Counted from the first letter of the stretch, positions 23,457-55,205 are shown. The stretch is DNA of 64,000 bases from Candidatus Staskawiczbacteria bacterium (GCA_903831095.1 CAIKWD010000011.1:5706-69705), one strand, 5' to 3'. Numbers and translations are program-made. Notes: generated from the letters alone by a model not told the origin.

Positions 23457-23465
23457 GTAAAACTA

Positions 23466-23560
23466 AAGCGAGGTAATAAACTTTTTGAAGTCCCTGGTCC
23501 ACTTGTCCCGCAGGACAAAGGGGGTTACCAGCAGACGGAAAAAAGTTTATTGCCGAGCGA
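23466..23560 (+). repeat. Copy A of a ~95-nt imperfect-palindromic repeat element
   Basis: AAGCGAGGTAATAAACTTTTTGAAGTCCCTGGTCCACTTGTCCCGCAGGACAAAGGGGGTTACCAGCAGACGGAAAAAAGTTTATTGCCGAGCGA. Near-identical to 53318-53412, and shares both termini with 25381-25458. The outer stem GGTAATAAACTTTTT/AAAAAGTTTATTGCC is perfect except for one U:G pair. Confidence 0.7.
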
Positions 23561-23586
23561 AAATGAAAACCGCGCCTTTCGGCGCG
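23561..23586 (-). terminator. Rho-independent terminator after the KH-protein gene
   Basis: Minus strand: CGCGCC-GAAA-GGCGCG followed by GTTTTCATTTT. Confidence 0.65.
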
Positions 23587-23602
23587 ATGTTCACTCTTTA
23601 AA

Positions 23603-23923
23603 TTATAAAGAAATATTGTCGATGTCGTCTGCTGGGGAAACTTCTTTCCTCTCAGCTCTTGGAGCACGTCCGCCCTCTGGTTCCTCAATCTTGAGGTTTA
23701 CCCTGGCGTGGTTCTTTAATCCGACTATTCGGACCAAGTTCCTGATTGCCTTAGCAGTTGATCCTTCTCTTCCTATGATTTGACCCATATCTTCTGGGTT
23801 TACTTTCAATGAAAGCAATACTCCCATTTCGTCAACCTTTCTCTCGCATTTGACGTCCTTAGGATTATCAACTAATGCTTTGACAATGTACTCAAGAAAT
23901 TCTAAATCCAATTCTTTTGCCAT
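23603..23923 (-). CDS. KH-domain RNA-binding protein (YlqC-like) with charged C-terminal tail
   Basis: The core GQIIGREGSTAKAIRNLV carries the KH GxxG motif. It sits in the conserved position between rpsP and trmD. About 25 extra C-terminal residues. Confidence 0.8.
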   Translation of the reverse strand: MAKELDLEFLEYIVKALVDNPKDVKCERKVDEMGVLLSLKVNPEDMGQIIGREGSTAKAIRNLVRIVGLKNHARVNLKIEEPEGGRAPRAERKEVSPADDIDNISL

Positions 23924-24899: not shown

Positions 24900-24916
24900 C
24901 TTTCAGATTTAAAATC

Positions 24917-25354
24917 TTATGCTGCTGCCTCGCCCGTAGGCGTAGCCTCAGGGCTACGGCCGAGGGGTTTTTCCTCTGCAGGTGCTGCTGGAGCTGGGGC
25001 TGGTGCTGCGGCCGGTGCAGCTGCTGGTGTAGCCTCGGCTGCATGTTTTGCCTCGCCCGTAGGCGTGGCCTCTGGGCTACGGCCGAGGGGCTTTTTGGAA
25101 ACGTTGATTTTCTTTGCGTCTATAATCTTTTCAGAAACCAAGAGGTTGTGTATTGAGGCCGAAGGCTGTGCGCCTTTGGATATCCAGTACAATATTCTTT
25201 CTTTGTTAAAGCTTTTCTTTTTTGTGAGCGGGTCTACATATCCCAAATCTTCAACAGCTCTTCCGCCTGTTGACGACCTTCTCTTATCTATTACAACCAC
25301 TCTGAAAAATGGCTGATTCTTTTTACCTTTTCTTGTTAATCTTATTGTAAGCAT
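24917..25354 (-). CDS. rpsP: 30S ribosomal protein S16 with ~60-aa Ala/Pro-rich C-terminal extension
   Basis: MLTIRLTRKGKKNQPFFRVVVIDKR... is the S16 core. The tail contains KKPLGRSPEATPTGEA twice and an (A/P)n run, all encoded by GC-rich repeat DNA. Confidence 0.9.
   Translation of the reverse strand: MLTIRLTRKGKKNQPFFRVVVIDKRRSSTGGRAVEDLGYVDPLTKKKSFNKERILYWISKGAQPSASIHNLLVSEKIIDAKKINVSKKPLGRSPEATPTGEAKHAAEATPAAAPAAAPAPAPAAPAEEKPLGRSPEATPTGEAAA
24927..24972. repeat. GC-rich palindromic unit, copy 1 (inside the rpsP 3' end)
   Basis: Plus strand: GCCTCGCCCGTAGGCGTAGCCTCAGGGCTACGGCCGAGGGGTTTTT. Inner stem CGTAGCC/GGCTACG, outer CCTCG/CGAGG. Confidence 0.7.
25050..25096. repeat. GC-rich palindromic unit, copy 2 (inside rpsP)
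   Basis: Plus strand: GCCTCGCCCGTAGGCGTGGCCTCTGGGCTACGGCCGAGGGGCTTTTT. It lies 123 nt (41 codons) from copy 1 with only a few substitutions. Confidence 0.7.
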
Positions 25355-25380
25355 GTTTTTATTATTTTTATTATTTAATT

Positions 25381-25458
25381 AAGCGAGGTAATAAGCTTTT
25401 TGCAGGCCTCTGAGACACGAAGTGCCAGATAGCCGGAAAAAAGATTGTTGCCGAGCGA
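25381..25458 (+). repeat. Copy B of the palindromic repeat element (same termini, different core)
   Basis: AAGCGAGGTAATAAGCTTTTTGCAGGCCTCTGAGACACGAAGTGCCAGATAGCCGGAAAAAAGATTGTTGCCGAGCGA. It fills the rnc-rpsP intergenic region, and its last base abuts the rnc stop codon. Confidence 0.65.
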
Positions 25459-26151
25459 TTATTCCCATTTCTTCACACCAAGAGCTAATTCTGCTGCTGC
25501 TTCCTCGGCTTCCCTCTTAGATGTTCCATGGCCTTCGGCAACCAATTCTGAACCAAGATATACTCCCACCACAAACTGCTTTTCGTGGTCTGGCCCTGAC
25601 TCTTTCATTACTTTATAATTTGGCGTGATTGAAACTCTTTCTTGTGCCTCTTCCTGAAATTTTGACTTAGCATCTTTATAAGAACCGTCTTGTATAATGT
25701 CTGCTAATTTCACCAACAAATATTTTTCAATAAATTCATCACATGGTTTGAAACCAGAATCCAAGTAAAGCGCTCCAAGCAATGCTTCAAATGCGTTTGC
25801 TAAAATATATGCTCTGGCTTTTCCTAATTCTTTTGACTCCCCTTTTGAAAGCAATAAGAATTCGTTAAACCCCAATTCTTCGGCAACGCTGGTTAACATT
25901 TTAGCATTTACCAGGGCAGCTCTCCAATTAGTCAGGTCGCCCTCTGCTTTTTCTGGAAAATCCTTATAAAGATGTGAAGTAACAATAAGTTCCATTACTG
26001 CGTCGCCCAAAAACTCCAACCTCTCATTGTGATCTAGTTTGAAATCCGGGTTTTCATTAAGGTAAGACCTGTGCGTAAAAGCTTGTTCCAGTAAGTCCTT
26101 GTTTTTAAATTTTAATCCCAGCTTTTTTTCTAGGATTGAAAAGTCTTTCAT
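25459..26151 (-). CDS. rnc: Ribonuclease III
   Basis: The RNase III signature NERLEFLGDAV and a C-terminal dsRBD (KSKFQE...). Confidence 0.9.
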   Translation of the reverse strand: MKDFSILEKKLGLKFKNKDLLEQAFTHRSYLNENPDFKLDHNERLEFLGDAVMELIVTSHLYKDFPEKAEGDLTNWRAALVNAKMLTSVAEELGFNEFLLLSKGESKELGKARAYILANAFEALLGALYLDSGFKPCDEFIEKYLLVKLADIIQDGSYKDAKSKFQEEAQERVSITPNYKVMKESGPDHEKQFVVGVYLGSELVAEGHGTSKREAEEAAAELALGVKKWE

Positions 26152-27042: not shown

Positions 27043-30000
27043 TTACTGGAATGGAGATATTTCCTTCCACTCTGGCACCGCAGTATTATGGATTGAAATA
27101 GATAAATTAGTTGTTTTACTACAATTTCCAAAATTACCAAATACATCTGGAAGGGTTTTGTCAGTAATTGTTAACGTAATAACATGTACTCCTGCAGTAT
27201 CAAAAGTAATAGGACCAGGGTCAAAAGAAAGAACATTTTGGGAAATAATTTTTTCAATTTTATTATGTCCATTAGCATCTATTCCTCCACCAAAATCCCA
27301 ATCATATACAAAGTTTTTCTCTGCTTCTAGATGATTTGCTACCAAATCTTTACACAAAGGAGATTCAATACCATGAGTATCATTGTAATAACAAATAGAA
27401 TTATCAACAATTGTTATTGGTTCTTTAATCAAGAAATTCTGTTTGTTATTCTCAATGCTTATAGATGGAGCAGGCCATGGATGTGGGCCTTTATTAATAA
27501 GAGCACTTGCCCCAGCTGCAGCCAATGAACCTTTGCTATAGCTTACTGTTACGTTTTGTCCTTCGAATATAGTGCTAGAACTATCCAATGCCAAATTCAC
27601 AATATTTGGGTGAACAAGGTCTAATGAAGCACTAGCAATATTGTATTCAACTCCGCCAACTTTTACTGTAAACTGAGATTTTACCAAAGTTTGAGGATCG
27701 ATAACTTTATCAAAAGATACTGCAACAATTGTACCTTGCTCATTTACTACAATGTTAGTAATTTTAGGAGCTGCAACTGTTGTGGTAAAGGTTAAATAAG
27801 CAGACGCCCAAGTTGTACCAATACTATTAGATGCTTTAGCTGAAAAATAATATAATTTTTCAGAAGTCAAACCTGTAATATCTTTGGAAAAATCTGCTGC
27901 TCCCTGAGCCTGAGAATATGTATAACTATGATCCCATACTCCAGGAGTTTGTCCGCCGTCGTTGTCCCCCCAGTAAACTGTGACAGTTGGATTTTCTCCT
28001 CCTGTATCTGAAATACTTCCATTTATAGTAGCAGTATCTGATGCTACGTTTGTCGCAGGACTTAATGAAATATCAGGAGCTGTTTTCACATTTTCCGCAG
28101 ATTGAGGATAACTTATAAGTACAACTCCAGAACCTCCGCCTGCACAAGCGCCTCCTCCACCTCCTGTATTTGCCATTCCACCAACACTCATATTTCCTCC
28201 TCCACCATATCCACCAACGCCATTATGCCCACTTCCATAGCCGCCTCCGCCTCCTGCAAAATATCCACTTTGACCAAAGTCAATAAATTGAGGAAAATAT
28301 AATCCAACACCTCCATTGCCTCCATACTCTCCATAGCCTGCATTTTCTCCAACCCCTCCAGCGCCTCCTCCACCACTAGCACCAACATCTTCTCCGCAAG
28401 TTCCATGTCCACCATCATTACCTTGGCCAGGAGTCCCAACAGCAGTTCCACAATTCCAATCTTTACCTCCTCCTCCGCCAGAACCACCAGAACCACCATC
28501 ACTATAAGTTGCTCCACCCAAACCTCCACCTATTGCAACAATTCCATCAAAAACTGAATTTTGTCCTTTGCTTTGCCCACCTCCGCCAGCTCCGATTGTT
28601 ACGTTATATGTATTAAAAATTCCTGATGAAAGAACATGAGCATCATAATGTAACAAACCACCAGCTCCTCCTCCGCCACCAATCCAATAACCAGAACAAC
28701 CACCACCTCCACCTCCTGCTACAACAAGAGTTTCAACTTTTTTCAAAATAGCACTGGTGTTGGTAAATACTCCATTAGAATTAAATGCATGGACACATCT
28801 CATATTAGGAGTTGAGGTTCTACTAATATTCACAAGTTTTACATCTCCTCCAGAAGCAGAACAACTTGCCACAAAATCTAAAGAAGCAGTTGGCCAGCTT
28901 GTGCCAATACTGTTGGTTGCAGAAGCAGAAAAATAATACTTTGTACCAGGAATTAATCCGGAAATATTTTTACTGAAGTTGCCCAATCCTTGAGGTTGTG
29001 AATAAGTATATTTATGATCCCAATTGCCTACTATTTTCTTTCCATCATTATCACCCCAGTAAACTGTAACTATTGGATTTTCTCCACCAGTAGAACCAAT
29101 GTTTCCATTTAAAGTAGCAGCATTTAATCCCATATTTGTCGGTACATTTAAATTGACAGACGGAGTTGAAGCACCATAACTTACAATAACAATACCCGAA
29201 CCTCCATTTCCACCTTTATTATTTGCGTTATAATGAGATCCTCCGCCTCCCCCTCCGCCAGTATTTGCCCCAGCATCTCCTCCAGGCATATTAGTCTGGC
29301 TGTTTGGTGAACCACCTCCACCCCCATTTCCATTATTATATCCTGCACCTCCATAAGTTGTACCAACAGCTCCTCCTCCGCCACCTCCTATTCCGCCATT
29401 TCCTCCAGTTGACAAAGTATATGAAGCTCCCCCGCCTCCACCGCCCCAATAATAATCAGTTCCTAAAATATTATTTAAAATTCCAGGCCCCCCATTTGGT
29501 TGATTTGGACCATCTGCACCAGCTCCGCCAGCTCCTCCTCCACCGCCAGAATAATAATTGCTATTATTACTATTTCCTCCTCTATAACCTTGTCCAGAAA
29601 CCCCAACTCCACCAGCTACAGATCTGCTTGGCGTGTATCCTGAAGCTCCTCCGCCTGAACCACCAGCTGCGCCTGCTGCACCTGGAGCGTAGTCTTGATA
29701 TGAACTGCCACCATGTCCTCCACCTATTGCGGTTAAATTTCCAAAACTAGAATTACCGCCATTTGTCGCTGGAATAGAATATTGATGGCTTCCTGGTTGT
29801 CCTTCAGTCCCTGCAGCTGGCGCTCCTTTTCCACCGGCACCAACTACAACAGGCACTGCTGTTCCTGGGGTTAATCCAATTGATTGCCTATAAACTACTC
29901 CTCCGCCTCCGCCTCCACCACCCATATCCATTCCTCCACCTCCACCGCCAGCAACAACAAAAACCTCTGCATAAGATACTCCACTAGCAGGGACAAATGT

Positions 30001-33000
30001 CCCGCTTGATGTAAAAGTGTTTATGCATCTCCCATTATGAGACGTAATAGTTCCTCCCGTACTTGGACATCCTTCCACATGAGTGTAATCGGGGGTAGTA
30101 AAACTTGCTGAATATGGAGCCCACGTAGTACCTGCGGTATTTTTACCTCTTGCAGAAAAATAATATTTAGTTTTAGGATTTAAACTACCTATGTCTATAC
30201 TGAATTTTCCTATTCCTTGAGGTTGAATTGGAGTATCTGGAATAAAACTATGTTGCCATTTCCCTGCTGCTTTCAAACCATCCTCTGTGCCCCAAAATAC
30301 TGTAATAGTTGCATCCAAACCTGTGCTACCCAATGTTCCATTTAATGTGGCAGTTGATGGAGCTATGTTAGTAGCATCATCCATCAATAAATTAGGCTTT
30401 GCTTGTAAATCTATAAAGAAATCATCCTTCAAATTAAAATAACTATTGTAATCTGGATGGGAAACACATGGTATTGTATGCACGCCTCCGCATCCGCTGT
30501 ACCCCCAATATGACCACCAATAACATCCCGATATCGTAGAACAACTCGTTGGGTCTCCATAATAATCCCCACAATTTATATTCCAATCAGGTTCCCAGCA
30601 AGTGCAATCGCTTGTAGTCACACTTCTTCCTAATCTTTTAGCTGAAGGACAATACAATTGCTGGCTGAAATAAGAATCCCAATAATTTGCCACGCAGTTT
30701 CCGTCAGAAGTTCCTTTTACTCCTACACTATCACAATTTCCATCAGCCAAAACATAATTAGACATATAATCTGAACATTGTCCACCCCAATAAGACCAAT
30801 CACTCCCAGGATTATTAGTAAACAAATTTTTGCAGGCTGAAGAGCAGGCGCCATTTGCAGGGTCGCAGGTGCTAGCAGGAGGAATATCTTCACCTGGCAA
30901 AGCATCTCCTAAGACAAATCTCTGATATTGAAATCCTGTAAAATCTCCAGAAGAGATAGTATCTGCTTCACCATATCCATCAAAAAGAAAATCTTTGATT
31001 ATACTCCCACTAGAAGTATTAATTTTTACAAAGTACGGGATATAATATCCATAAGTTGCACCTTCATATTGGTAAGAAGCACCATACAAACTAACAACCC
31101 AGAGATTTTCACTATCATCAATGCTTATTGCGCTTGGGTTATATGAATAATAATGACCCATATAACTGCCAGTAGAGCCATTTATTTTTACTATTCCACT
31201 TTGATTAGTAATATAAACATTATCAGAGCCGTCTATTGCTATTTTACCAAAAACGCCACTAGTGTCACGATCACCGGCCCCGAATGTCCCAATTAAATTT
31301 CCCGTATAACCATCCAATTTTGTAACTGTTCCATCGTAATTATTTACAACCCAAACATTGTTTAAACTATCAACTGCAACTGCTCCAGGCCAAGCTCCAA
31401 CAGTATATGTTCCTAATATAGTTCCAGACTGGTTAACTTTCATAACAACTCCGCCACTTGGATGTGCACCAGCGCCAGTACCATCTGGTTGGTTGGTAAT
31501 CCAGACATTTCCATTGGCATCAGCGGCAATTCCACTGCCAGTGATAGGATAACTTCCTATTAACATCCCTGCTGCACTATATTTTGCGATACCAGAAGTC
31601 AACCTGTAATTAACGTAATTACTATAACTACTCCAGATATTTCCATAAATATCAATTGCTATACCTATATTAGATTCATCTGATAAATAACGAAAATCAT
31701 TATTTCCAGTAGTTGAAGCGCATGTATCTGCGATATGAACATTTCCTAATTCATCTAAGGCTATACCTCCTCCACCTGCATGTCCTTTATTATTGCCTAT
31801 GCCGTCACGATTTCCAGTTTCATAATGATCAACCAAATTCCCAGTTGAGTTGTCAAATTTGGCAACTAAACCATTAGCGTTTGTACACCACCAATCTGGT
31901 GGCACGTATCCCCCCGGGTTATTCATTTGTGCTTCATCATAAGATGTTGGCCCTACTTGAGCACTGTTTAAATAAATATAAGGGGTAGAAACATATGTTG
32001 TTTTGGCAACAAAACTTTTTGATGCTCCTCCTGCCCAAACATCTCCACCTGCATTAGTAACTTTGGCAAAATAATAATATGTTTCTCCTGTCTCCAACTC
32101 AGTAATATTTTGATAAAAATCTCCAGATGTACTAATTTGAGAAACTACAGCACTGTAATCCCAAGAATTGGAATTTGTCCACATATTAGTTGTACCCCAA
32201 TATACAGTGACAATTAAATTGGTTAAGTCAGATGCAGCAATATTTCCTTTTATAACTGCTGAAGAAGACCTTATCTTTGTTGCAGGAAAAAGAGTAATAT
32301 TGCTAGGCAAAGTAGTAAAGTTAGCTGAAGTTAAAGACCAGGCAGTTCCAATACTGTTTGTAGCAGAAACTGTGTAATAATATCTAGTATCAGTATTTAG
32401 TCCTGGAATAAACTTATTAAAATTTCCCATTCTTTGAGGCTGAACTGGGCTTGTGGGTACAGAACTGTGTTGCCAATTGCCTGGCACTTTCCCGCCATCG
32501 CTTGTGCCCCAATATACAGTGACAGTTGGCTTGTCTTTTCCAGTAGATGTAACTTTTCCATTAATAATTGCTGAATTAGGCGCTATATCGGAAGTAGTAT
32601 TTAAACTGACAGCAGGAGGAGCATCTTCTCCAACAAAAAATTTATTTTCCAAATTGAAATATTCCTCGTAATTAGGCAAAACAACACAAGGCAAATTTGT
32701 AGTAAGATCTTTGCATGAGCAATCATCAATATCTATTGTTCTAGCTACTCTTTCACTTGAAGGACATCCAAATCTAGAATTGGTTGTATAATCAAAAATC
32801 CATGCGCAGTCTCCATCTGTGCCAGATATTCCTAATCTGTCGCATAATGGATCTCCACTTATATTGGTATCTAAAGACCAATCATATATGTCGTTACACG
32901 AATTGTCATAGCTATAAGAAAAATCATCACTCCATAAATCACCCAAGTAGAAAATATCTTTACATGTATTAGAACAGCTATTTATAGAAGGATCACATCC

Positions 33001-35637
33001 AAAAGTGCCAGGCAATGTTGTAAAATTCAATGAAGATGCCGGCCAGCTATCTCCAAATTTATTGTGCGCCTTTACAGTAAAATAATATTTGGTTGCATGA
33101 TTTAAACCCATTATATTTTTTAAAAAAGCTCCAACGCCTTGTGGCTGGTCTGGACTTGAAACAACTGAACTGTGTTGCCAGCCAGAAGAATTTTTTTGCC
33201 CATCTATTGTGCCCCAGTATGCAGTGACTGTTGGATTCTCTCCGCCAGTATTGGAAATATTTCCATTAATAGTTGCTACCATTTTTCCTACTTTAGTTGC
33301 AGCACTAATAACAACAGTTGGAACACTAAAAGTAGTAAAACTAAAAAAGGAAGCTGTTGGCCAAGAAATCCCAGCACTATTTGTTGCTCGGGCAGTAAAA
33401 TAATACTTAGTTCCTGGATTTAAACCATTAATAGTTTTACTGAAAACACCAACTCCTTGGGGCTGGTATGGATCAGATACAACAGAACTACTATCCCAAC
33501 CTACCGAAGTATTTCCCTTATTAGTGGTACCCCAAAAAATCATTACAGTTGAATTATCTACTCCAGTATTAGTAATACTTCCGTTTATTGTAGCACTATT
33601 TGAGGTAATATTAGTTACATATGTAGTATAAACAATAGGAAAAGGAGTGGCAGCTAAAGTAGTGAAATTTAAGGAAGATGTAGCCCATATAACCCCAGTG
33701 TCATTAATTGCTCTTGCAGTAACATAATATTTAGTTCCTGGAGTTAATCCAGAAAAATTTTTATAAAAACTTACTACTTCCTGGGGCTGAATTGATGGAC
33801 TGGTTGGATATGAACTATGATCCCAATTTATTGGATTTTTCCCTCCATCTGTAGAACCCCAAAATACTGTTACAGTATTACTGCTACCAAAATAATCTGA
33901 AAAACCTCCACTGACAGTAGCTGTTGTTTGTGTTATAGCCGAGGTACTCAAACTTATTGGTATTACTCCAGCAACAAAACTTAAAGACTGATTAGCCCAA
34001 CTGGTTCCTATATCATTGCTTGCCTTGGCAGTAAAATGATATCTAGTCCCAGCAGTTAATCCGCTGATATTTTTTTCAAATAATCCTGTTTGATTCCCCA
34101 AAACAAAATTATTTTCCCATTTTGATGCATCATTTCCAAAATCATTTTTTCCCCAATATATAGTAACAGACGTGCTACTTCCTCCATCACTAACTACGTT
34201 TCCATTAAGGGTAGCTGTTGTTCCTACTGTATTTGTGGCATCACTCACAGTTACTGTTGGTGGACCATTAGTTTTAAAACCAAGTGAAACAGATGGCCAA
34301 ACAGTTTCAGCAACATTTGTCGCTTTTGCCGTAAAATAATAATTTCTTCCAGGAATCAACCCACTGACATTTAATGAAAAATTTCCAATACCCTGCGGTT
34401 GAGAAGGACTGCTGACAACAGAACTATGTTCCCAGTTTTCTGAAATTTGCCCACCATCGGTTGTGCCCCAATACATGGTAACAGTAGGATTGACTCCTCC
34501 TGTTGATATCACACGACCATTCAAAGTGGCAGTTGTAGACCCAACGGCAGCAGAATTAGTCAAAGCTATATTAAGTCCTCCATTATATGCGACAAGTGTA
34601 GGCGCAGGGGCATTACCACGAAAAATTATCCATCCAGTCAATGGCGGAGTAGAGCTGGTAATACAATTAGTATGGTTCTGTATATCACACAAATAATAAG
34701 GAGTGAATGTTGTATCTGTTGTAGGCATCAATTGCCATCCAGAATCAAATAATATTATATGAGTATCATCTTTGGTATACATTACATGACCATCAGGAGC
34801 TATGTTATTCCAATAAAAACCATTCCAATCAGAAGATCCGGCGTCTTTAACAATATATCCTAAGTTTGATTTTTCAAGTTGAGTATAAAAACTTAAAGAA
34901 GCGGTTGGCCAAATAATATCTTCTGATAAAATGTTTATTGTATTGCTACGTGTTAGATCACTATCTATCCTATCTGACGCAGAAAAATAATATTTAGTGC
35001 CAGGAATCAAATCCGAAACATCCAATAAAAAACTATTACTAGGGCCAGATGTAAGTTGAGTAGAACTGTGTTGCCAATTCTCAGGTACTTTTCCTCCGTC
35101 GGTTGTGCCCCAATACATAGTTATATTATGACCTACTGAATCATCGGTAAAAGCACACTTTAAGGTAGAAGTCGACGACGTTATGCTGACAGCATTATTT
35201 GGTGCGATATCAGTATAATAATCGGTAAAAGTTAAAGGGGCCGAAGGCCATGATATACCTGCACTATTCTCAGCAGAAGCTGAAAAATAATATTTGACCC
35301 CAGAAGTTAAACCATAAAAATCATTAATAAAATTACTTATAGGCTGAGGCTGAGGAGGATTAGTTGGTGCAGAACTGTGTTGCCAATTTCCAGGTACCCT
35401 TCCTCCATCGGTTGTCCCCCAATATATAGTAACACGAGGATTACCTCCAACACTACCAGTTATGTTTCCATTTACACGTATTCGGGAATAATCTGTAAAG
35501 CCAGATGAAATACTAAGAGTAACTGTTAGAGGATCAGACGTAGCAAAAACAGTGTTGCAAATAAAAAAAGCAAAAAACAAGGAAGCTAAAACTACTAGAA
35601 ATAGCTGAACTTTTATTTTTGCTTTTTTAAGTGACAT
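27043..35637 (-). CDS. Giant secreted mosaic surface protein (2864 aa): FN3-like repeats, NHL-type beta-propeller, two glycine-rich domains, Ig-like and PKD-like C-terminus
   Basis: Signal/anchor MSLKKAKIKVQLFLVVLASLFFAFFICNTVFA. Twelve units carry (V/I)T(V/I/M)(Y/F)WG..DGG....W.HS...PQ...PGTKYYF.A.A.N..G..W. Six NHL-like blades (GIALDELGNVHIAD, GIAIDIYGNIWSS, GIAADANGNVWITN, AVAVDSLNNVWVVN, KIAIDGSDNVYITN, AISIDDSENLWVVS). Two blocks start ..F.S.G.F.......(V/L)VVAGGGGGG followed by long G-runs. C-terminal YDWDFGGG. Confidence 0.85.
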   Translation of the reverse strand: MSLKKAKIKVQLFLVVLASLFFAFFICNTVFATSDPLTVTLSISSGFTDYSRIRVNGNITGSVGGNPRVTIYWGTTDGGRVPGNWQHSSAPTNPPQPQPISNFINDFYGLTSGVKYYFSASAENSAGISWPSAPLTFTDYYTDIAPNNAVSITSSTSTLKCAFTDDSVGHNITMYWGTTDGGKVPENWQHSSTQLTSGPSNSFLLDVSDLIPGTKYYFSASDRIDSDLTRSNTINILSEDIIWPTASLSFYTQLEKSNLGYIVKDAGSSDWNGFYWNNIAPDGHVMYTKDDTHIILFDSGWQLMPTTDTTFTPYYLCDIQNHTNCITSSTPPLTGWIIFRGNAPAPTLVAYNGGLNIALTNSAAVGSTTATLNGRVISTGGVNPTVTMYWGTTDGGQISENWEHSSVVSSPSQPQGIGNFSLNVSGLIPGRNYYFTAKATNVAETVWPSVSLGFKTNGPPTVTVSDATNTVGTTATLNGNVVSDGGSSTSVTIYWGKNDFGNDASKWENNFVLGNQTGLFEKNISGLTAGTRYHFTAKASNDIGTSWANQSLSFVAGVIPISLSTSAITQTTATVSGGFSDYFGSSNTVTVFWGSTDGGKNPINWDHSSYPTSPSIQPQEVVSFYKNFSGLTPGTKYYVTARAINDTGVIWATSSLNFTTLAATPFPIVYTTYVTNITSNSATINGSITNTGVDNSTVMIFWGTTNKGNTSVGWDSSSVVSDPYQPQGVGVFSKTINGLNPGTKYYFTARATNSAGISWPTASFFSFTTFSVPTVVISAATKVGKMVATINGNISNTGGENPTVTAYWGTIDGQKNSSGWQHSSVVSSPDQPQGVGAFLKNIMGLNHATKYYFTVKAHNKFGDSWPASSLNFTTLPGTFGCDPSINSCSNTCKDIFYLGDLWSDDFSYSYDNSCNDIYDWSLDTNISGDPLCDRLGISGTDGDCAWIFDYTTNSRFGCPSSERVARTIDIDDCSCKDLTTNLPCVVLPNYEEYFNLENKFFVGEDAPPAVSLNTTSDIAPNSAIINGKVTSTGKDKPTVTVYWGTSDGGKVPGNWQHSSVPTSPVQPQRMGNFNKFIPGLNTDTRYYYTVSATNSIGTAWSLTSANFTTLPSNITLFPATKIRSSSAVIKGNIAASDLTNLIVTVYWGTTNMWTNSNSWDYSAVVSQISTSGDFYQNITELETGETYYYFAKVTNAGGDVWAGGASKSFVAKTTYVSTPYIYLNSAQVGPTSYDEAQMNNPGGYVPPDWWCTNANGLVAKFDNSTGNLVDHYETGNRDGIGNNKGHAGGGGIALDELGNVHIADTCASTTGNNDFRYLSDESNIGIAIDIYGNIWSSYSNYVNYRLTSGIAKYSAAGMLIGSYPITGSGIAADANGNVWITNQPDGTGAGAHPSGGVVMKVNQSGTILGTYTVGAWPGAVAVDSLNNVWVVNNYDGTVTKLDGYTGNLIGTFGAGDRDTSGVFGKIAIDGSDNVYITNQSGIVKINGSTGSYMGHYYSYNPSAISIDDSENLWVVSLYGASYQYEGATYGYYIPYFVKINTSSGSIIKDFLFDGYGEADTISSGDFTGFQYQRFVLGDALPGEDIPPASTCDPANGACSSACKNLFTNNPGSDWSYWGGQCSDYMSNYVLADGNCDSVGVKGTSDGNCVANYWDSYFSQQLYCPSAKRLGRSVTTSDCTCWEPDWNINCGDYYGDPTSCSTISGCYWWSYWGYSGCGGVHTIPCVSHPDYNSYFNLKDDFFIDLQAKPNLLMDDATNIAPSTATLNGTLGSTGLDATITVFWGTEDGLKAAGKWQHSFIPDTPIQPQGIGKFSIDIGSLNPKTKYYFSARGKNTAGTTWAPYSASFTTPDYTHVEGCPSTGGTITSHNGRCINTFTSSGTFVPASGVSYAEVFVVAGGGGGGMDMGGGGGGGGVVYRQSIGLTPGTAVPVVVGAGGKGAPAAGTEGQPGSHQYSIPATNGGNSSFGNLTAIGGGHGGSSYQDYAPGAAGAAGGSGGGASGYTPSRSVAGGVGVSGQGYRGGNSNNSNYYSGGGGGAGGAGADGPNQPNGGPGILNNILGTDYYWGGGGGGASYTLSTGGNGGIGGGGGGAVGTTYGGAGYNNGNGGGGGSPNSQTNMPGGDAGANTGGGGGGGSHYNANNKGGNGGSGIVIVSYGASTPSVNLNVPTNMGLNAATLNGNIGSTGGENPIVTVYWGDNDGKKIVGNWDHKYTYSQPQGLGNFSKNISGLIPGTKYYFSASATNSIGTSWPTASLDFVASCSASGGDVKLVNISRTSTPNMRCVHAFNSNGVFTNTSAILKKVETLVVAGGGGGGCSGYWIGGGGGAGGLLHYDAHVLSSGIFNTYNVTIGAGGGGQSKGQNSVFDGIVAIGGGLGGATYSDGGSGGSGGGGGKDWNCGTAVGTPGQGNDGGHGTCGEDVGASGGGGAGGVGENAGYGEYGGNGGVGLYFPQFIDFGQSGYFAGGGGGYGSGHNGVGGYGGGGNMSVGGMANTGGGGGACAGGGSGVVLISYPQSAENVKTAPDISLSPATNVASDTATINGSISDTGGENPTVTVYWGDNDGGQTPGVWDHSYTYSQAQGAADFSKDITGLTSEKLYYFSAKASNSIGTTWASAYLTFTTTVAAPKITNIVVNEQGTIVAVSFDKVIDPQTLVKSQFTVKVGGVEYNIASASLDLVHPNIVNLALDSSSTIFEGQNVTVSYSKGSLAAAGASALINKGPHPWPAPSISIENNKQNFLIKEPITIVDNSICYYNDTHGIESPLCKDLVANHLEAEKNFVYDWDFGGGIDANGHNKIEKIISQNVLSFDPGPITFDTAGVHVITLTITDKTLPDVFGNFGNCSKTTNLSISIHNTAVPEWKEISPFQ

Positions 35638-35684: not shown

Positions 35685-38600
35685 TTAGTTGTTAACACTG
35701 TATATTCCGGTTGTTCCAAGCACGCCAGTATCAGCTGAGGTGACTGTGCCCTTTATGTATATGAATGTCACATCTTGCCCTTTTATTATATATCCCATAA
35801 GTTTTAAATCTATAATTTTAGAATTTCCAGATCTTAAAGAGACAGAAGATATCAAATCTCTTTGCCCATCAACAGTCACCACAAATTGATCTTGCTTGCC
35901 AACTGGATTTGCCATTGCCTTATCAAATGTCAAAGACATAATTGTCCCAGAATTGTTTACAGTAATATTTTCTATTTGTGGGGGTACATTTATTTTACTA
36001 TTATTTGAAGCAGGACTATTGGCGAAAGGATCAATAAACAAGGAGGCATTTTTTCCAGCGTCATAATTTGTCCAACTAGAACATTTATTATCAACATCGC
36101 AAACCTGTATTCTGACATAATAATTAGTGCCATAAGCAATACAATATTCACTATTAAGCAAATTACAATCAAAATCAGGATTCATTTTTACATACAACGT
36201 TTGTTGGTTTGTAGAACCATTCCTAGTTATATCAAGATCCCAGTTAGAAAAATCCGGTTTACTATTTGCATCTAAATTTTTAGTTACCTGTATTTCAGAT
36301 TTTAATTCAGCATTTTTACCATTATAATTCCATTGAATTGTAAAATTATCTTCACCAGCAACTTCACAAGTATTACTTGGATTTACTAAAATATTACTAA
36401 CAGTTGGCCTATTATTGCAATCAGTTTCATCAACACCTGGCGTTGTAACACAAACCTGGTTGCCATCTTGGCACTCTAAATGATGTGAACCATCATTACA
36501 ACAAGCAGGATCATTAACATTATTAGCATCACATTTTGGATCAGGTGTACCATGTTCCTCATAGCATTGTCGTGCATTATTACATTTTCCAAAAGTAAAA
36601 TTGCACTCTTCTGGAAAACCAACATTACTACACAAAACCTCACCTGGAGTTCCAGAGCCCTGAATTGTTGTACAAGTTCCATTTACACATGCATTATGCG
36701 TTACAGTTTCATTACAACTATTTGGATTGTTAATATCGCAATCTATTCTTGCTGGAGAATCAGTTCTTATACATGTATCACCAGAGCATGTTGTATATGG
36801 CAAATTATTACAGTTGTCGCCAGTACAACACTGTTGGCCTTGGTCTGGCAAAACTCCGGTACCACAATCTTTTTGCTGAGTTGAATCATTTGTTGTCACA
36901 CATTGGTTGCTACTGTTACAAGTAGTAAATGTACTTCTACAAGTTTCACCAACACATGTACAAGCAGACCCAGTTTCAACACCATCACCGCAGTAATAAT
37001 TATCATACACATTAGTAGTTGTAGTACATATATTATTAACGCAAGTAGGATATTCAATTTTCCAACCACAAGAACCATTGTCTCCGCATATTGGGTCTAA
37101 GTTGTTGGTGTAGACACCCATACTGCAACCACATCCGTCGAAAGCTCCATAAACACATTTCTTGGCTGATAAATCGCATTGAGTACATTTTGGATTGTTA
37201 ACTCCATTAGAATTATTGGCAGCAGGATCACAATCAGAACCATCATCACTTAGAGAATCAGTTGCTTCACAACCTCCTTGAGAGTTACATTTGTAATGTG
37301 CGCCTCCACAAGAACCATTGTCTCCGCATATTGGGTCTAAGTTGTTGGTGTAGACACCCATACTGCAACCACATCCGTCGAAAGCTCCATAAACACATTT
37401 CTTGGCTGATAAATCGCATTGAGTACATTTTGGATTGTGTCCATTGGCGTTAGAAGAAGGAGAACAATCAGAACCATCATCACTTTGAGCATTTGTATAT
37501 ATACACTTTCCCGAAGAGTCACAGCGAGAATATGGGGAGTTACCACAGGCAATATTTCCAGTTAAAAGATTAGCACTTAACAAACAATCTGTGCTGTCAT
37601 AAAATCCTTGAACACATCTTGGATATTGTGTGCTGTAATCACAGTGAGTACACTTTGAATCGTCTCCAATTGTACATCCAGATGCATCAGCTTTTCCTGG
37701 ATCAGCTGTGGCTATACAATGTCCACTATTATCACAATAAGTAAATGGATTAGGACATCTTTCGTTTCCAGTTGGAATATTAGCATTTATTAAACAATCT
37801 GTACTATCATAAATTCCTTTAACACATTTTGGATATTCTGTGCTGTAATCGCAGTGAGTACATTTGGAGTCATCACCTATGGTACAACCAGATGCATCTG
37901 CTAAACTAACATCTGTAGTTTCCTTACATGTTCCACTGTCATCACAATAAGTATATGTTAAAGGAGGACATGAATCCTCTCCAATTGTATTATTGTCACC
38001 AATAACACAATTGAAACCATCATAAGGTCCTTGCATACATTTTGGAAAAATGGGATTAGTATAATCGCAAAATGTGCATTTAGAATTATCACCAATTGTA
38101 CACCCAGACTGGTCAGCCAAGGTTTGATCATTTGTGCCCTGACAAGTTCCAGCGCTGTCACAATATGTATAAGCAAATAGGCAATCGTTATCAGTCTTAC
38201 ACTCGTCTGTTCCAGCGCCATCAACTACTTTACACTGTTTGGAATCATTACAAATGGTGTGACCATTGATTTTACAACTTGTAACATCTGATTCGACACA
38301 CGAGTCATCACCAGCTGTTGCCAAACAAGCGCAATCTTTTTCCCCCTTGTCATTGGCCGTGCATTCTGAGTGGCTGGCACATGTTGACCACTTGCAACCA
38401 GAATCACAAGTCTTTTTTCCGCCACAAGCGCAATCTTTTGTTTCTCCAGGCTTGCAAGCTCCCGCGGTAGAGCATAAATTAGCGCATGTGCCTCCAGACT
38501 GCAAACAGGCACCTCCAGAACACCCGCATTTACAAATAGTTACTGACAATACTTGGTCAACAGGATGAACATCACAATAAGGAAAAGATCTAGACATAGG

Positions 38601-51103: not shown

Positions 51104-52933
51104 TTATTCTACGGTGACGGACTTGGCAAGATTTTTTGGTTTATCTACATCTATGCCTTTTAAATTAGCAATGTGATACGCCAAAAGTTGCAAAGGAACA
51201 GTATTTATTATTGGCATTAATTCCTCTCGGCATTTTGGAACCATTATTATGTTTTCAGTTAAATTGGAAACACTGTTGTCAGTTTCACTTAGTAGAGCAA
51301 TAACCTGCCCACCTCTGGCATGCACTTCCTCCATATTGCTTAAAATTTTACTATACGTGCTGTCTTTTGTGGCAATAAACACCACAGGCATCTCACTGTC
51401 TACCAAGGCAATCGGACCGTGTTTCATTTCAGCTGCCGGATATCCCTCGGCATGTATGTATGAAATTTCCTTCAATTTTAAAGCTCCTTCCAAAGCAACT
51501 GGGAAATTTAATCCTCGGCCAAGATAAATAAAATTTTTACTATCTTCAAATTTTTCTGCAAGTAAAAGTATCTTATCTGATTGTTTTAATGTTTCTTCAA
51601 CTTTTTGTGGTAAATCTCTTATATCGTCAAAGAATTCTTTTGAAATAACTTTTCCTTTTTGCTGAGCCAAATACAAAGCCAATAGTAATAGAGCTGTAAC
51701 CTGGCATGAAAAAGCTTTTGTTGAAGCAACTCCAATTTCAGGACCCGCATGCAAATATATTCCAGAATCAACTTCCCTGGAAATGGTCGAACCAACTACG
51801 TTTATTATACCCAAAGTCTTAGCTCCCTTGGCCTTAGCTTCGCGCAAAGCAGCCAAAGCGTCAGCTGTTTCTCCAGACTGGGAAATCACCAAAAGTAAGT
51901 CGCCTGTTCCTATAATTGGATTTCTGTATCTGAATTCAGAAGCATAATCAACATCAACTGAAAATCCAGCCAGCTTTTCTATGAGATATTTCCCAATCAA
52001 AGCTGAATGCCAACTTGTACCACAAGCAACAATGACTATTCTTTTTATAAGGTTAAAATCAATGTCTATGCTCAACTTAATTTTATTCTCAGAGTCTATT
52101 CTTCCGCGTAAAGTGTTTTCGATAGCATTTGGCTGTTCAAAAATTTCCTTGAGCATGAAATGTTTAAATCCTTTTTTCTCAATTTCTGTTGCAGTCCATT
52201 TTATTTCGTCTATGACCTTTTCCACTGCCTGCCCTTCGAAATTTTTTATAGAATAATTACCCTCAGTCAGCACAATCATTTCGTTATCATTGATATAAAC
52301 AACTTTTTTGGTAAATGGCAAAACTGCTACGGCGTCGGAAGCAACAATATTTTCCTCTTCGCCAACGCCCAAAACAATTGGCGAGCCTTTTCTGGCAACT
52401 ACAATCTTGTTTTCTTTGCTACACAACACAGCTATGCCAAATGTTCCTTCAACCAATTTCAAAGCTTTAACAACTGCATTTTCCAGATTGCCATCGTAAA
52501 ATTTTTCTATTAAATGGCTCAATACTTCTGAATCTGTTTTAGAAACAAATATATGGCCTTCACGCTCTAAAATTTCTTTCAAAGCACTATAATTTTCAAT
52601 AATTCCATTATGCACCACTGCTATTTCTGGTTTATCCCGCGTAGCGGGATCCCGCCCTGCGGGACACCCAAAATGCGGATGAGCATTAACCTCATTCGGC
52701 TCTCCGTGAGTTGCCCATCTGGTATGAGCTATCCCGATATTGGCCGGATTCAAACCTAGAGCAAGCTTTTCCAGCTCAGAAACGCGCCCCTTAACCTTTG
52801 CCGACTGTAATTTCCCATTGTTAAGTAAACAAACTCCAGCAGAGTCGTATCCTCTGTATTCGAGCTTTTTTAAGCCATCTATAAGTATTGGCGCTACATT
52901 TTTCTTACCAAAATAAGCAATTATTCCACACAT
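51104..52933 (-). CDS. glmS: Glutamine-fructose-6-phosphate aminotransferase
   Basis: MCGIIAY N-terminal nucleophile, two SIS domains, C-terminal ..LAKSVTVE. Confidence 0.95.
   Translation of the reverse strand: MCGIIAYFGKKNVAPILIDGLKKLEYRGYDSAGVCLLNNGKLQSAKVKGRVSELEKLALGLNPANIGIAHTRWATHGEPNEVNAHPHFGCPAGRDPATRDKPEIAVVHNGIIENYSALKEILEREGHIFVSKTDSEVLSHLIEKFYDGNLENAVVKALKLVEGTFGIAVLCSKENKIVVARKGSPIVLGVGEEENIVASDAVAVLPFTKKVVYINDNEMIVLTEGNYSIKNFEGQAVEKVIDEIKWTATEIEKKGFKHFMLKEIFEQPNAIENTLRGRIDSENKIKLSIDIDFNLIKRIVIVACGTSWHSALIGKYLIEKLAGFSVDVDYASEFRYRNPIIGTGDLLLVISQSGETADALAALREAKAKGAKTLGIINVVGSTISREVDSGIYLHAGPEIGVASTKAFSCQVTALLLLALYLAQQKGKVISKEFFDDIRDLPQKVEETLKQSDKILLLAEKFEDSKNFIYLGRGLNFPVALEGALKLKEISYIHAEGYPAAEMKHGPIALVDSEMPVVFIATKDSTYSKILSNMEEVHARGGQVIALLSETDNSVSNLTENIIMVPKCREELMPIINTVPLQLLAYHIANLKGIDVDKPKNLAKSVTVE
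52635..52664. repeat. Two tandem 15-nt GC hairpins inside glmS (in-frame 10-codon block)
   Basis: Plus strand: TCCCGC-GTA-GCGGGA then TCCCGC-CCT-GCGGGA. They encode CPAGRDPATRD between the conserved HPH and VVHNG motifs. Confidence 0.7.
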
Positions 52934-53011
52934 AATAATATAAGTTTAAACCTATATAAGCAAAAGTACAACTCCTTTCCAAAACATGAAAATTGTTGTA
53001 TTATTATCTCC

Positions 53012-54328
53012 ATGCAATACCACATTATAGTGTACGGTTGCCAAATGAACATAAGCGATGCGGAACGTGTTTCTGCTGTTTTAGAATGTATAAAATACAA
53101 AAAAACCTCAAATATGTCTGAAGCTGATTTAATTGTTGTAGTAATGTGCTCTGTGCGCCAATCAGCTGTTGACCGAGTTCACAGCTTGGCAGAAAAATTC
53201 CAAGAAATTAAGAAAAAAAATCCAAAACTTAAAACTATTTTAACTGGATGCATTTTAAAAAAAGACAAGAGAATTTTTGTTAACAACTTTGATTATATTT
53301 TAAACATAAAAGACTTAAAGCGAGGCAATAAACTTTTTGCAGTCCCTGGTCCACTTGTCCCTCAGGACAAAGGGGGTTACCAGCAGACGGAAAAAAGCTT
53401 TTTGCCGAGCGATTATTTAAACATAACGCCAAAATATTCCTCCAAGTTTTCTGCTTGTGTGCCAATTATGACAGGATGCAATAATTTTTGTGCTTATTGC
53501 GTTGTACCTTATGCCAGGGAAAGAGAAGTTTCCAGATCTGCAAAAGAAATAATTTCAGAGATAAAAAATTTAATTAAAAAAGGATACAAAGAAATTTGGC
53601 TTTTGGGGCAAAATGTAAATAGTTATAAGGACCCTTCGACGAGCTCAGGGCAAGCCATAAATTTTCCAAAGCTTTTAAATATGGTAAACAACATTCCCGG
53701 AGAATTTTGGATAAGATTTACATCCTCTCACCCAAAGGATTTCACAGAAGAAGTTATAAATGCGATGTCTGCCTGCAAAAAAATTACCCCCTATTTGAAT
53801 TTGCCAATTCAAGCTGGTGACGACCAAGTTTTAAAATCAATGAACCGACATTATACAGTTAAAGAGTACAAAGCAAAAATAAAAAAATTAAGAGAAAAAA
53901 TTCCTGATATTAGCCTTTCTACAGATATTATTGTAGGATTCCCCGGCGAAACAAGAAAACAATTTAACAATACTGCCAAGCTTTTTTATGAAGTAAAATA
54001 TGATTTTGCCTACATTAATAAATACTCTAAAAGAGCTGGAACTGCGGCCTTCAAGCTTAAAGACGACGTTTCTACAGACGAAAAGAAAAGACGAGAAAAA
54101 GTTTTGACTAACATACTTAAAAAAACAGCCTTAGAAAAAAATAAAAAACTTATTGGAAAAGAAACTACAGTTTTAATAAATGAAAATCGTGACGAAGAAT
54201 ATTTCGGCAAAAATGAACAATATAAAACTATCAAAGTAAAATCAAAGAAAAATATTATAGGACAACTTGTTAAAGTAAAAATTAATCAAGTTTCACCATT
54301 CACCTTGACCGGAAAATTATATGAATAA
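53012..54328 (+). CDS. miaB: tRNA methylthiotransferase MiaB (radical SAM MTTase) carrying an in-frame repeat-element insertion
   Basis: N-terminal MTTase domain Cys contexts YGCQMN, MCSVR, TGCILKK. Radical-SAM GCNNFCAYC and a TRAM-like C-terminus. Overlaps miaA. The stretch KRGNKLFAVPGPLVPQDKGGYQQTEKSFLPSD is encoded by the repeat. Confidence 0.85.
   Translation: MQYHIIVYGCQMNISDAERVSAVLECIKYKKTSNMSEADLIVVVMCSVRQSAVDRVHSLAEKFQEIKKKNPKLKTILTGCILKKDKRIFVNNFDYILNIKDLKRGNKLFAVPGPLVPQDKGGYQQTEKSFLPSDYLNITPKYSSKFSACVPIMTGCNNFCAYCVVPYAREREVSRSAKEIISEIKNLIKKGYKEIWLLGQNVNSYKDPSTSSGQAINFPKLLNMVNNIPGEFWIRFTSSHPKDFTEEVINAMSACKKITPYLNLPIQAGDDQVLKSMNRHYTVKEYKAKIKKLREKIPDISLSTDIIVGFPGETRKQFNNTAKLFYEVKYDFAYINKYSKRAGTAAFKLKDDVSTDEKKRREKVLTNILKKTALEKNKKLIGKETTVLINENRDEEYFGKNEQYKTIKVKSKKNIIGQLVKVKINQVSPFTLTGKLYE
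53318..53412 (+). repeat. Copy C of the ~95-nt palindromic repeat element, inside miaB
   Basis: AAGCGAGGCAATAAACTTTTTGCAGTCCCTGGTCCACTTGTCCCTCAGGACAAAGGGGGTTACCAGCAGACGGAAAAAAGCTTTTTGCCGAGCGA. Flanked by TTA on both sides. Confidence 0.75.
53631..53659. repeat. 29-nt GC-rich motif inside miaB, shared with rnhB
   Basis: ACCCTTCGACGAGCTCAGGGCAAGCCATA, encoding DPSTSSGQAI. The same nucleotide motif in rnhB is read in another frame (TLRQAQGEQ). Confidence 0.5.
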
Positions 54329-55205
54329 ATTAATTGTCATTTTAGGACCAACTTCATCTGGAAAAACAGACCTTTCTGTTAAGCTAGCCAAAAAATTCAA
54401 AGGCGAGGTGGTTTCAGCTGATTCAAGGCAAGTTTATAAAGGAATGGACGTGGGATCTGGCAAAGTTACAAAAAAGGAAATGGCAGGAATTCCGCATTAT
54501 TTACTTGATGTTGCCAGCACGCGCCAAAGGTTTTCAGTTGCCCAATACCAAAAACTAGCCATGAAAGCCATAAAAAAAATACAGACAAATAATAAAATTC
54601 CATTTGTAGTTGGAGGCACAGGTTTTTATATACAATCAATAACCGATGGAGTTGTAGTACCTGAAGTTAAGCCAGACTGGAGACTTAGAGAAAAGCTAGA
54701 AAAAATGACAGTTGTAGAAATGTTTGAAAAATTAAAAAAACTCGACCCAAAAAGAGCTGAATCAATCGACCAAAAAAATCCAAGAAGGCTTGTCAGAGCC
54801 TTGGAAATTGTTCTAAAAACCGGAAAAGCCGTGCCTTCCCTGGGAAAAAATCAAAACAAAAAATTTGAAATTTTAGAAATTGGAATTATAAAATCAAGAA
54901 CAGAATTAAAGAATAGAATACACTTGAGACTGGTAAAAAGATTGAAGAATAATTTGATGGTTAAAGAGATAGAAAAATTGCATAAAATTTTGTCATGGAA
55001 AAGACTTGAAGAATTTGGCCTAGAATACAGATTTGTCGCACAATACTTGCAAGGTAAAATTACCTACCAAGAAATGATGGACAAAATAGAAATAGAATCT
55101 ATACAATATGTAAAAAGGCAGGAAACCTGGTTTAAAAGAGATAATCGCATTAAGTGGGTAAAGAATTATATAGAAGCTGAAAAATTAATCAAAAAATTTA
55201 TTTAA
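54321..55205 (+). CDS. miaA: tRNA dimethylallyltransferase
   Basis: P-loop ILGPTSSGKTDLS, DSRQVYKGMDVGSGK and GGTGFY. Confidence 0.9.
   Translation: MNKLIVILGPTSSGKTDLSVKLAKKFKGEVVSADSRQVYKGMDVGSGKVTKKEMAGIPHYLLDVASTRQRFSVAQYQKLAMKAIKKIQTNNKIPFVVGGTGFYIQSITDGVVVPEVKPDWRLREKLEKMTVVEMFEKLKKLDPKRAESIDQKNPRRLVRALEIVLKTGKAVPSLGKNQNKKFEILEIGIIKSRTELKNRIHLRLVKRLKNNLMVKEIEKLHKILSWKRLEEFGLEYRFVAQYLQGKITYQEMMDKIEIESIQYVKRQETWFKRDNRIKWVKNYIEAEKLIKKFI

Follow-up and report, generated by a model that had tools for sequence, protein, structure and literature searches.

How does a long hairpin-forming DNA segment come to lie, in frame and without a stop codon, in the middle of a gene for a tRNA-modification enzyme? 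The question arises from miaB in a 64,000-nt stretch of a Candidatus Staskawiczbacteria genome (GCA_903831095.1, CAIKWD010000011.1:5706–69705), which is referred to here as the window. An earlier reading of the sequence alone (the original prediction) had described a 95-nt palindromic element in frame within this gene and two related sequences elsewhere in the window. The evidence assembled here indicates that the miaB segment is probably one copy of a lineage-specific, non-coding hairpin repeat of Staskawiczbacteria and close relatives in the Candidate Phyla Radiation (CPR), translated in a permissive linker of the MiaB protein. CPR bacteria, or Patescibacteria, have tiny, streamlined genomes that are usually thought poor in repetitive or selfish DNA.

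A hairpin repeat in the reading frame of miaB

The miaB open reading frame (ORF) reads straight through the repeat, designated copy 1 (AAGCGAGGCAATAAACTTTTTGCAGTCCCTGGTCCACTTGTCCCTCAGGACAAAGGGGGTTACCAGCAGACGGAAAAAAGCTTTTTGCCGAGCGA; Table 1), as the original prediction had stated; the label 'essential-type' that it gave the gene is an overstatement. Copy 1 begins at the first base of codon 103 and, together with T53413, makes up codons 103–134 with zero stops. The 32 residues that it encodes, KRGNKLFAVPGPLVPQDKGGYQQTEKSFLPSD, lie in the linker between the UPF0004 domain (residues 3–92) and the Radical_SAM domain (residues 150–324), which agrees with the interdomain location first proposed; a TRAM domain occupies residues 379–436. 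The protein matches the solved Bacteroides MiaB (7MJZ) with E = 7e-79, and its sequence assigns the host to Candidatus Staskawiczbacteria within the CPR/Parcubacteria. The RNA of copy 1 folds, as anticipated, into a long imperfect hairpin (−35 kcal/mol, z = −3.3) that is closed by GCGA (53320–53323) against GAGC (53407–53410), forming G-C and C-G pairs and a tandem G.A mismatch. The two substitutions in the 3' arm of the outer stem create one A.C and one T.T mismatch.

An AlphaFold2 model of the window MiaB has a mean pLDDT (predicted local distance difference test) of 73.5, with block means of ~43–58 over residues 101–140, so that the linker is poorly modelled between better-modelled domains and next to a confident N-terminal domain. 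The low values would fit a flexible loop; this is weak evidence, because the cluster-binding loop at residues 144–174 is also modelled poorly.

Copies in the window and the extent of the family

Two further copies of the repeat lie in the window, both between genes. Copy 2 is identical to copy 1 at 92 of 97 positions by blastn (94.8%, 23464–23560, E = 5e-40), somewhat above the ~90% first judged by eye. It lies 9 nt from the trmD ATG (minus strand) and immediately follows the KH-protein gene's intrinsic terminator (23588–23569, minus strand), which is canonical and separate from the repeat. Copy 3 is a short type with the same handle and a different core; blastn aligns only the termini of copy 1 with it (25381–25463; 25 and 30 nt, 92–93% identity), and the shared ends reported in the original prediction are therefore real. 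It abuts the rnc stop codon (25459–25461, minus strand) and lies 26 nt from the rpsP ATG. Copies 2 and 3 fold at −41.2 kcal/mol (z = −5.5) and −28.6 kcal/mol (z = −4.5), respectively, and a covariance-model search found no fourth copy in the 64 kb. A 145-aa ORF (23346–23783, plus strand) runs through copy 2 and overlaps the KH-protein gene and trmD in antisense; almost certainly not a real gene, it illustrates how a stop-poor repeat produces false gene calls. A sigma-70-like match (TTGTAA-18-TATTAT; 25345–25374, plus strand) ends 7 nt ahead of copy 3's first base and would suit transcription of its '+' strand. A dedicated promoter for a small RNA was considered and rejected: such matches occur at chance level in the region, and none precedes copy 2.

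Outside the window, a scan for the left terminus over one genome per species returned 33 loci, ~25 of them with complete copies, from nine Staskawiczbacteria metagenome-assembled genomes (MAGs), three labelled Saccharibacteria and one labelled Patescibacteria. Nine matches, eight in Firmicutes or Bacteroidetes and one in a Saccharibacteria-labelled MAG (L021), are without a right end and were discarded as chance matches. A covariance model (R1) built from 22 long copies found further copies in the scanned loci; at one locus, L017, five copies stand within 8 kb, all on one strand. A scan of metagenomes for the handle pattern alone gave 80 loci, of which ~31 passed the covariance model; most of the 80 are chance matches, many of them 88 nt long and from soil samples. 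The expected recurrence of the element is thus borne out, the family amounting to ~68 distinct copies from Staskawiczbacteria MAGs, other CPR-labelled MAGs and metagenomes.

All copies have the termini AAGCGAGG ... CCGAGCGA and share a conserved handle, AAGCGAGGYAATAAACTTTTTG ... AAAAAAGTTTGTTGCCGAGCGA, with the left side (A)AGCGAGG-Y-AATAAACTTTTTG and the right side AAAAAAGTTTGTTGCCGAGCG(A). The arms of the handle enclose one of six or more unrelated, interchangeable hairpin cores, giving a copy length of 72–104 nt. The outermost ends pair as GCGAGG/CCGAGC (G-C, C-G, tandem G.A, G-C, G-C), and the outer stem is an imperfect, A/T-rich inverted repeat of 15–17 bp. The boundaries of the family are sharp, and the flanks are merely AT-rich. 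Duplicated right handles, consisting of TTGCCGAGCGA, 7–10 nt and then CCGAGCGA again, with or without a leading TTG or G, stand just outside full copies at L010 1208–1309, L026 5480–5581 and L001 5195–5320, as do solo left handles at L020 4564 and, in L035, upstream of 2633. These duplicated and solo handles suggest that the same sites underwent insertion, or (partial) deletion, more than once.

The repeat has no match in Rfam; within the window only tRNAs reach the gathering score, and the best sub-threshold matches are of 8–15 bits. A terminator scan called no repeat copy as an intrinsic terminator. A search of the element-encoded peptide against a database of 5.8 billion proteins, one that missed known positives, returned a single candidate.

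Strand-specific folding and placement between genes

Covariation, which the original prediction proposed as a check on the fold, is present. In a model-based alignment of 58 distinct copies, standard pairs fill 94.7% of cells, compared with 38–52% when the partner column is slid, and 21 of the 32 pairs (151 cells) change on both sides; none of 500 shuffles reaches the observed values, and the figures are generous, the copies having shared descent and the alignment having been fitted to the model. Compensatory variants can be read in the raw sequences, both in the apical stem (TTGTCC/GGACAA, TTGTTC/GAACAA, TTGCC/GGCAA and TTGTCTC/GAGACAA) and in a further change, CTGG/CCAG versus CAGG/CCTG. The two strands are not equivalent. 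In 34 of 37 copies the '+' strand gives the better fold of the two; the mean difference is 5 kcal/mol (Wilcoxon p = 5e-7), and the '+' strand has 89 G.T pairs versus 10 A.C single mismatches. Copy 1 is one of the three exceptions.

The genomic context is also stereotyped. After removal of one duplicate locus, 69 model matches leave 68 copies, 64 of them intergenic and 4 inside ORFs. Among the intergenic copies, 31 are flanked on both sides by genes antisense to their '+' strand, and 24 have one antisense side with the other undetermined or ambiguous; two lie clearly between sense genes, one lies between convergent genes, and the context of six is not determined. More than 85% share one orientation relative to the neighbouring genes. 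Between the right end and the upstream gene's stop codon the median distance is 3 nt (range −1 to 28); between the left end and the ATG that follows, it is 10 nt (range 2 to 31). The copies have conserved housekeeping operons as neighbours, such as rnc-rpsP-KH-trmD and L11-nusG. Copy 1 is atypical here as well, its sense orientation being opposite to the usual antisense one.

Replication direction was rejected as the rule behind this orientation, since the three copies of L157, all within 21 kb, are mixed: the copy in miaB has minus-strand orientation in a gene on the plus strand (antisense), the one at L11/nusG has plus-strand orientation with minus-strand genes on either side (antisense), and the copy in the thrS gap is on the plus strand between plus-strand genes (sense). 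The gap between the KH-protein gene and trmD is filled in two genomes by different subfamily variants, copy 2 in the window and a copy at the equivalent position of L023 (5633–5732). In-situ compensatory evolution at this site is not claimed; because the differences follow genome-specific subfamilies, replacement or concerted evolution is equally likely.

These regularities bear on an alternative, namely that the family is primarily a structured element serving its host between operon genes, as an intercistronic RNA, an antisense small RNA or a single-stranded-DNA site. Under it, the copy in miaB would be a by-product or one more regulatory copy; for that copy the two accounts overlap, and it is on the nature of the family that this account departs from that of a spreading repeat. 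Covariation is strong across subfamilies, one strand folds better in 34 of 37 copies and G.T pairs far exceed A.C mismatches, but the better-folding strand is the antisense one and the operon mRNA carries the weaker hairpin. The shared orientation and the position right after stop codons are likewise in its favor, as is an orientation that does not come from replication direction, with two of the three L157 copies antisense to the adjacent or host gene; yet no promoter or terminator signal rises above chance, no Rfam family corresponds, and copies inside genes occur in both orientations. Occupation of the KH/trmD gap by different variants in two genomes speaks for a host function, although near-identical copies within each genome and interchangeable cores are typical of spreading repeats or of concerted evolution, and the solo and duplicated handles resemble the debris of insertion and deletion. 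Overall, a primary host function is possible but rather unlikely.

Copies inside genes

The reading of copy 1 as a translated copy of a spreading repeat draws on the other copies found inside genes. Six in-gene copies are known, all in conserved genes (Table 1), and all six are stop-free and in frame, using three different frames and both orientations; out-of-frame copies would escape detection as spanning ORFs. The insert in tgt (L060) splits the PF01702 match. Some 6–8% of the copies found lie inside genes. On average 3.05 of the 6 frames of a copy are free of stops, versus 1.5 in shuffled sequences and 1.9 in random window segments, an average that represents only a handful of independent observations, the copies being related. 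The three host genes, miaB, mnmA and tgt, all encode tRNA-modification enzymes. This could reflect chance in translation-heavy CPR genomes, or a permissive architecture.

The copy 1 segment is probably translated and tolerated. The opposite view, that it is removed from the mRNA or bypassed by ribosomes using the flanking TTA codons for take-off and landing, is suggested by a stable, GC-richer hairpin in an AT-rich gene with TTA on both sides. Programmed bypass, as in phage T4 gene 60 and the mitochondrial 'byp' elements, involves matched take-off and landing codons by which the conserved frame is restored, and a stop codon after take-off. At miaB no stop codon follows the would-be take-off codon. 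The TTA directly after copy 1 is out of frame, and landing on it would shift the frame and destroy the conserved YLxITPKY motif; landing on the next in-frame TTA would skip Y135, which is invariant in the ortholog alignment. The flanks of other copies are without matched codons, and the open, in-frame state of all six in-gene copies, with the ascertainment caveat given above, would be needed only if the copies are translated. Excision or bypass is accordingly very improbable.

History of the MiaB linker

Among 118 MiaB orthologues, ~65 have a basal linker of 18 residues, of the type IKKLPEILGIKKIKNADN, and the linkers of the others range from 19 to 52 residues. The longer linkers include peptides of this repeat family in both the sense and the antisense frame, short remnants (e.g. 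LLARQQTFSMPSD) and peptides of other palindromic repeats (e.g. NPRQILRHGVRSDEG and HPVKCRKTVILPKAKLFNGV). The nearest orthologues of the window protein, P0002 (79% identity) and P0003 (77%), have the basal linker and no insert, and the window MiaB is their sister in a neighbour-joining tree made with the linker masked. P0010, the MiaB of L001, and five MiaB proteins of the antisense type fall into different clades, beside basal-linker proteins, so that the insert-bearers are scattered over the tree. The absence of the peptide from P0002 and P0003, and of any similar one from 7MJZ, supports the original prediction.

The two sense-orientation copies in miaB, those of the window and L001, have different junctions, which argues for independent events. 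The L001 protein keeps the first eight native linker residues and the native C-terminal KLLPSD. Of the 18 native residues seen in its closest orthologues, the window protein keeps the first only; 17 are missing, and the net gain is 15 aa. Taken together with the tree, these sequences would imply that the MiaB linker has been invaded, by estimate, at least seven times independently and in both orientations.

That copy 1 is an assembly artefact or the ancestral native linker peptide has a negligible chance of being correct: the element-containing linker is about as long as that of the Bacteroides protein 7MJZ, but an independent scaffold from another sample (L002) is 100% identical to window positions 52098–55160 over 3063 nt, another organism (L001) carries a related copy in its own miaB, the segment shares 95% DNA identity with intergenic sequence, it is absent from the closest orthologues and from the ~65 basal-linker proteins, and no peptide similar to its product is found at the linker site of 7MJZ.

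Origin of the miaB copy

The preferred explanation is that of a repeat that spreads mainly between genes. The family behaves like transposable elements of the miniature inverted-repeat type (MITEs) or repetitive extragenic palindromic (REP) repeats, with a conserved handle holding one of the alternative cores, and its usual home is the few-nucleotide gap between consecutive genes, in one orientation. An occasional copy may land, or survive, inside a gene at a structurally permissive place, where survival would need a length that keeps the frame and a stop-free frame in the one used (about 3 of 6 on average). At miaB, ribosomes would read through copy 1, and a 32-residue linker would replace the native one of 18 residues. 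We infer that the family is or was mobile, and its way of spreading likewise; the missing native linker residues were presumably deleted during or after insertion.

Several observations weigh against this explanation. First, flank logos over the 68 copies display no conserved target and no duplicated bases. The original prediction had taken the TTA on either side of copy 1 for a possible target duplication; these triplets are coincidental, and duplications of TTA, TA or AGCGA are all rejected, the AGCGA model also adding 89 nt, which is not a multiple of three. Among the collected loci, no pair of handles lies 150–4000 nt apart as the bounds of an autonomous element would. Mobility by classical transposition is unsupported because there is neither a target-site duplication nor, in the collected loci, an autonomous partner element. 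No transposase was noticed adjoining the copies examined, and no genome-wide search for REP-associated tyrosine transposases (RAYTs) was made. Second, the insertion in miaB is not the clean ~32-aa one that the original prediction expected in an ortholog alignment; because 17 native residues are missing, a simple insertion event is an incomplete description of the locus. Third, owing to shared descent among the copies there are fewer independent observations than the covariation and strand statistics suggest, and the figure of at least seven invasions is only an estimate because it comes from a crude neighbour-joining tree of proteins 62–79% identical. Finally, the strong orientation bias and the strand-specific folding suggest that the intergenic copies may be functional and not merely selfish.

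Comparison with known repeats

The closest parallel in behavior is with the Rickettsia palindromic elements (RPEs; Ogata et al. 2000), which, as summarised in PMC10969869, lie in frame inside unrelated housekeeping genes. According to that summary, RPEs are short, palindromic, hairpin-forming interspersed repeats of a reduced genome, found between genes and in frame within them, with the inserted peptide at permissive surface or linker positions and several frames free of stops. The CPR family has ~68 copies, with three in the 64-kb window and up to five in 8 kb, and its in-frame copies occupy unrelated genes: miaB (four loci, both orientations), mnmA and tgt. Because mnmA and tgt also have in-frame copies, the analogy drawn by the original prediction holds at the level of behavior. 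The family is an analogue of RPEs and not a member, its hosts being CPR bacteria and not Alphaproteobacteria, a distinction made without comparison of consensus sequences. Its copies are 72–104 nt long and ~6–8% of them are in genes, compared with ~100–150 nt and nearly half for some RPE families in the account of PMC10969869. The modular build of conserved handle and variable core, the strict orientation, the post-stop position and the repeated invasion of one linker set it further apart.

Bacterial MITEs such as Correia/NEMIS, ERIC and BOX/RUP are small non-coding hairpin repeats that are mostly intergenic (PMC10969869, PMC3184786). They resemble the present family in their terminal inverted repeats, long hairpins, mainly intergenic location, co-transcription with neighbours and occasional intragenic copies with open frames (PMC10969869, PMC3184786), and the CPR repeat has the small size, the lack of a transposase and the terminal inverted repeats, here the 15–17-bp outer stem, of such elements. 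Unlike them, it has no target-site duplication, no conserved target and no cognate insertion sequence in the collected loci, and it has a conserved non-Watson-Crick G.A tandem at its ends and an orientation bias above 85%. REP elements and the bacterial interspersed mosaic elements (BIMEs) that they form, which are associated with RAYT transposases, are 20–40 nt long, G+C-rich and often alternating in orientation (PMC2817692). The two share the character of abundant, lineage-specific extragenic palindromes with strand-specific hairpins and no target duplication (PMC2817692), a likeness that would be compatible with single-strand (HUH-type) mobilisation. A REP palindrome also has a conserved 5' tetranucleotide, and the family falls outside the REP definition, with its length of 72–104 nt, A/T-rich stem and single orientation.

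Integron attC sites, which come after promoterless cassette ORFs with variable content and close to intI, have conserved boxes at the base of the stem, a variable centre and the core sites RYYYAAC/GTTRRRY. Like them, the CPR repeat keeps structure over sequence, folds better on one strand, comes, with its orientation fixed, immediately after a preceding ORF's stop codon and can form same-orientation arrays (the five copies of L017). However, its termini hold no RYYYAAC ... GTTRRRY core sites, and the flanking genes are not cassettes but core housekeeping genes in conserved synteny (rnc, rpsP, the KH-protein gene and trmD; L11 and nusG). In the terminator scan the copies also do not qualify as intrinsic terminators, in which a U tract directly follows a G+C-rich hairpin.

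The combination of a G.A-clamped handle, interchangeable cores, an antisense better-folding strand and post-stop placement fits none of the models tested. One unlikely and frankly speculative possibility is that the family is a strand-specific, structure-recognised CPR element placed after stop codons, in antisense, by a single-strand mechanism. If so, it would represent a new kind of site for a hairpin-recognising recombinase or HUH enzyme or, alternatively, an antisense or intercistronic RNA module through which expression is organised in the very compact operons of Patescibacteria. Where it spills over into the linkers of enzymes for tRNA modification, these reduced genomes would gain new protein segments.

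A full-text literature search found no palindromic or in-frame repeats described in CPR/Patescibacteria, consistent with the original prediction, which knew of no equivalent there. The family is previously undescribed; in-frame insertions of MITEs and RPEs are already known elsewhere. The original prediction recognised the in-frame hairpin repeat in miaB; it missed the predominance of intergenic copies, the orientation rule and the repeated invasion of the linker. In streamlined CPR genomes, a structured repeat occupies many of the gaps between genes and repeatedly comes to form part of proteins, a second, phylogenetically remote example of Rickettsia-type palindromic elements inside genes. 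The MiaB linker is a natural experiment on insert tolerance, with many independent insertions in both orientations and later partial deletions. For annotation, such repeats create spurious ORFs and explain lineage-specific 'insertions' in CPR proteins, and both the strictness of the orientation and the difference in folding between strands point towards a mechanism or function that is still undiscovered.

Features of the window and other palindromic inserts

Table 1. The miaB gene, the repeat copies of the window and the copies found inside genes elsewhere. Positions are those of the window unless a locus is named.
Feature	Position	Strand or orientation	Evidence or remarks
miaB (tRNA methylthiotransferase, 438 aa), host gene	53012–54328	+	PF00919, PF04055, PF01938; 7MJZ match
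Repeat copy 1, long type, 95 nt, inside miaB	53318–53412	+, sense	Covariance model R1 109 bits, E = 5e-23; frame KRGNKLF...
Copy 1 outer stem, 5' arm (GGCAATAAACTTTTT)	53324–53338	+	Fold; helix 1 98.6% paired over 58 distinct copies
Copy 1 apical stem-loop TTGTCC-CTCA-GGACAA	53355–53370	+	Fold; compensatory variants in other copies
Copy 1 outer stem, 3' arm (AAAAAGCTTTTTGCC)	53392–53406	+	2 substitutions versus family consensus (AAAAAGTTTGTTGCC)
Repeat copy 2, long type, 95 nt, intergenic	23466–23560	+	Covariance model 112 bits
Repeat copy 3, 78 nt, short type with the shared handle and another core (GGCCTCTGAGACACGAAGTGCCAGATAGCC)	25381–25458	+	Covariance model 60 bits, E = 2e-11
In-gene copy, miaB	L001	sense	Frame KRGNKLF...
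In-gene copy, miaB	L157 10290–10371	antisense	E = 4e-11; frame ARQ...KNLLPRS
In-gene copy, miaB	L158 1526–1610	antisense	E = 8e-8; frame ARQ...KNLLPSS
In-gene copy, mnmA	L035 2633–2732	antisense	Host confirmed by Pfam; frame SLGNKLF...
In-gene copy, tgt	L060 5274–5359	antisense	Host confirmed by Pfam; frame SLGNQNF...

The window miaB contains a second, short GC-rich insert, 'PSTSSGQA' (CCTTCGACGAGCTCAGGGCAAGCC; 53627–53659), in the radical-SAM domain; it is common to the orthologues P0002, P0003, P0013, P0032, P0038 and P0042 and absent from most. Other MiaB orthologues have 'PTSPRLRGA' or 'LPAGRQV' inserts at different sites.

Palindrome-encoded segments are also present in other genes of the window. 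GlmS (51104–52933, minus strand) has an extra 'FGCPAGRDPATRDKPE' between AHPH and IAVVHNG, encoded at 52626–52685 by two overlapping GC-rich hairpins (ATCCCGC-GTA-GCGGGAT and TCCCGC-CCT-GCGGGA); this is apparently a further in-frame insertion of a palindrome, one that belongs to a separate repeat family. The tail of rpsP (24916–25104, minus strand) encodes a long C-terminal extension of S16 in which 'KPLGRSPEATPTGEA' occurs twice; both occurrences are encoded by GC-rich palindromes, in a genome of 35% GC.

Repeats of another kind occupy the minus-strand ORFs at 27800–35450, where diverged tandem-like units stand ~300–1100 nt apart in up to 12 copies with 60–80% identity, accompanied by Gly/Pro-rich low-complexity tracts (GGAGG-type runs on the reverse strand); the region is probably a giant repetitive surface protein. 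Farther along, a 133-nt direct repeat (37066–37198 and 37306–37438) is 100% identical at a spacing of 240 nt, and a 193-nt repeat (37555–37747 and 37765–37957) is 78% identical at a spacing of 210 nt; the repeats at 37066–37957 are either repeat units within a coding region or the product of recent duplication.

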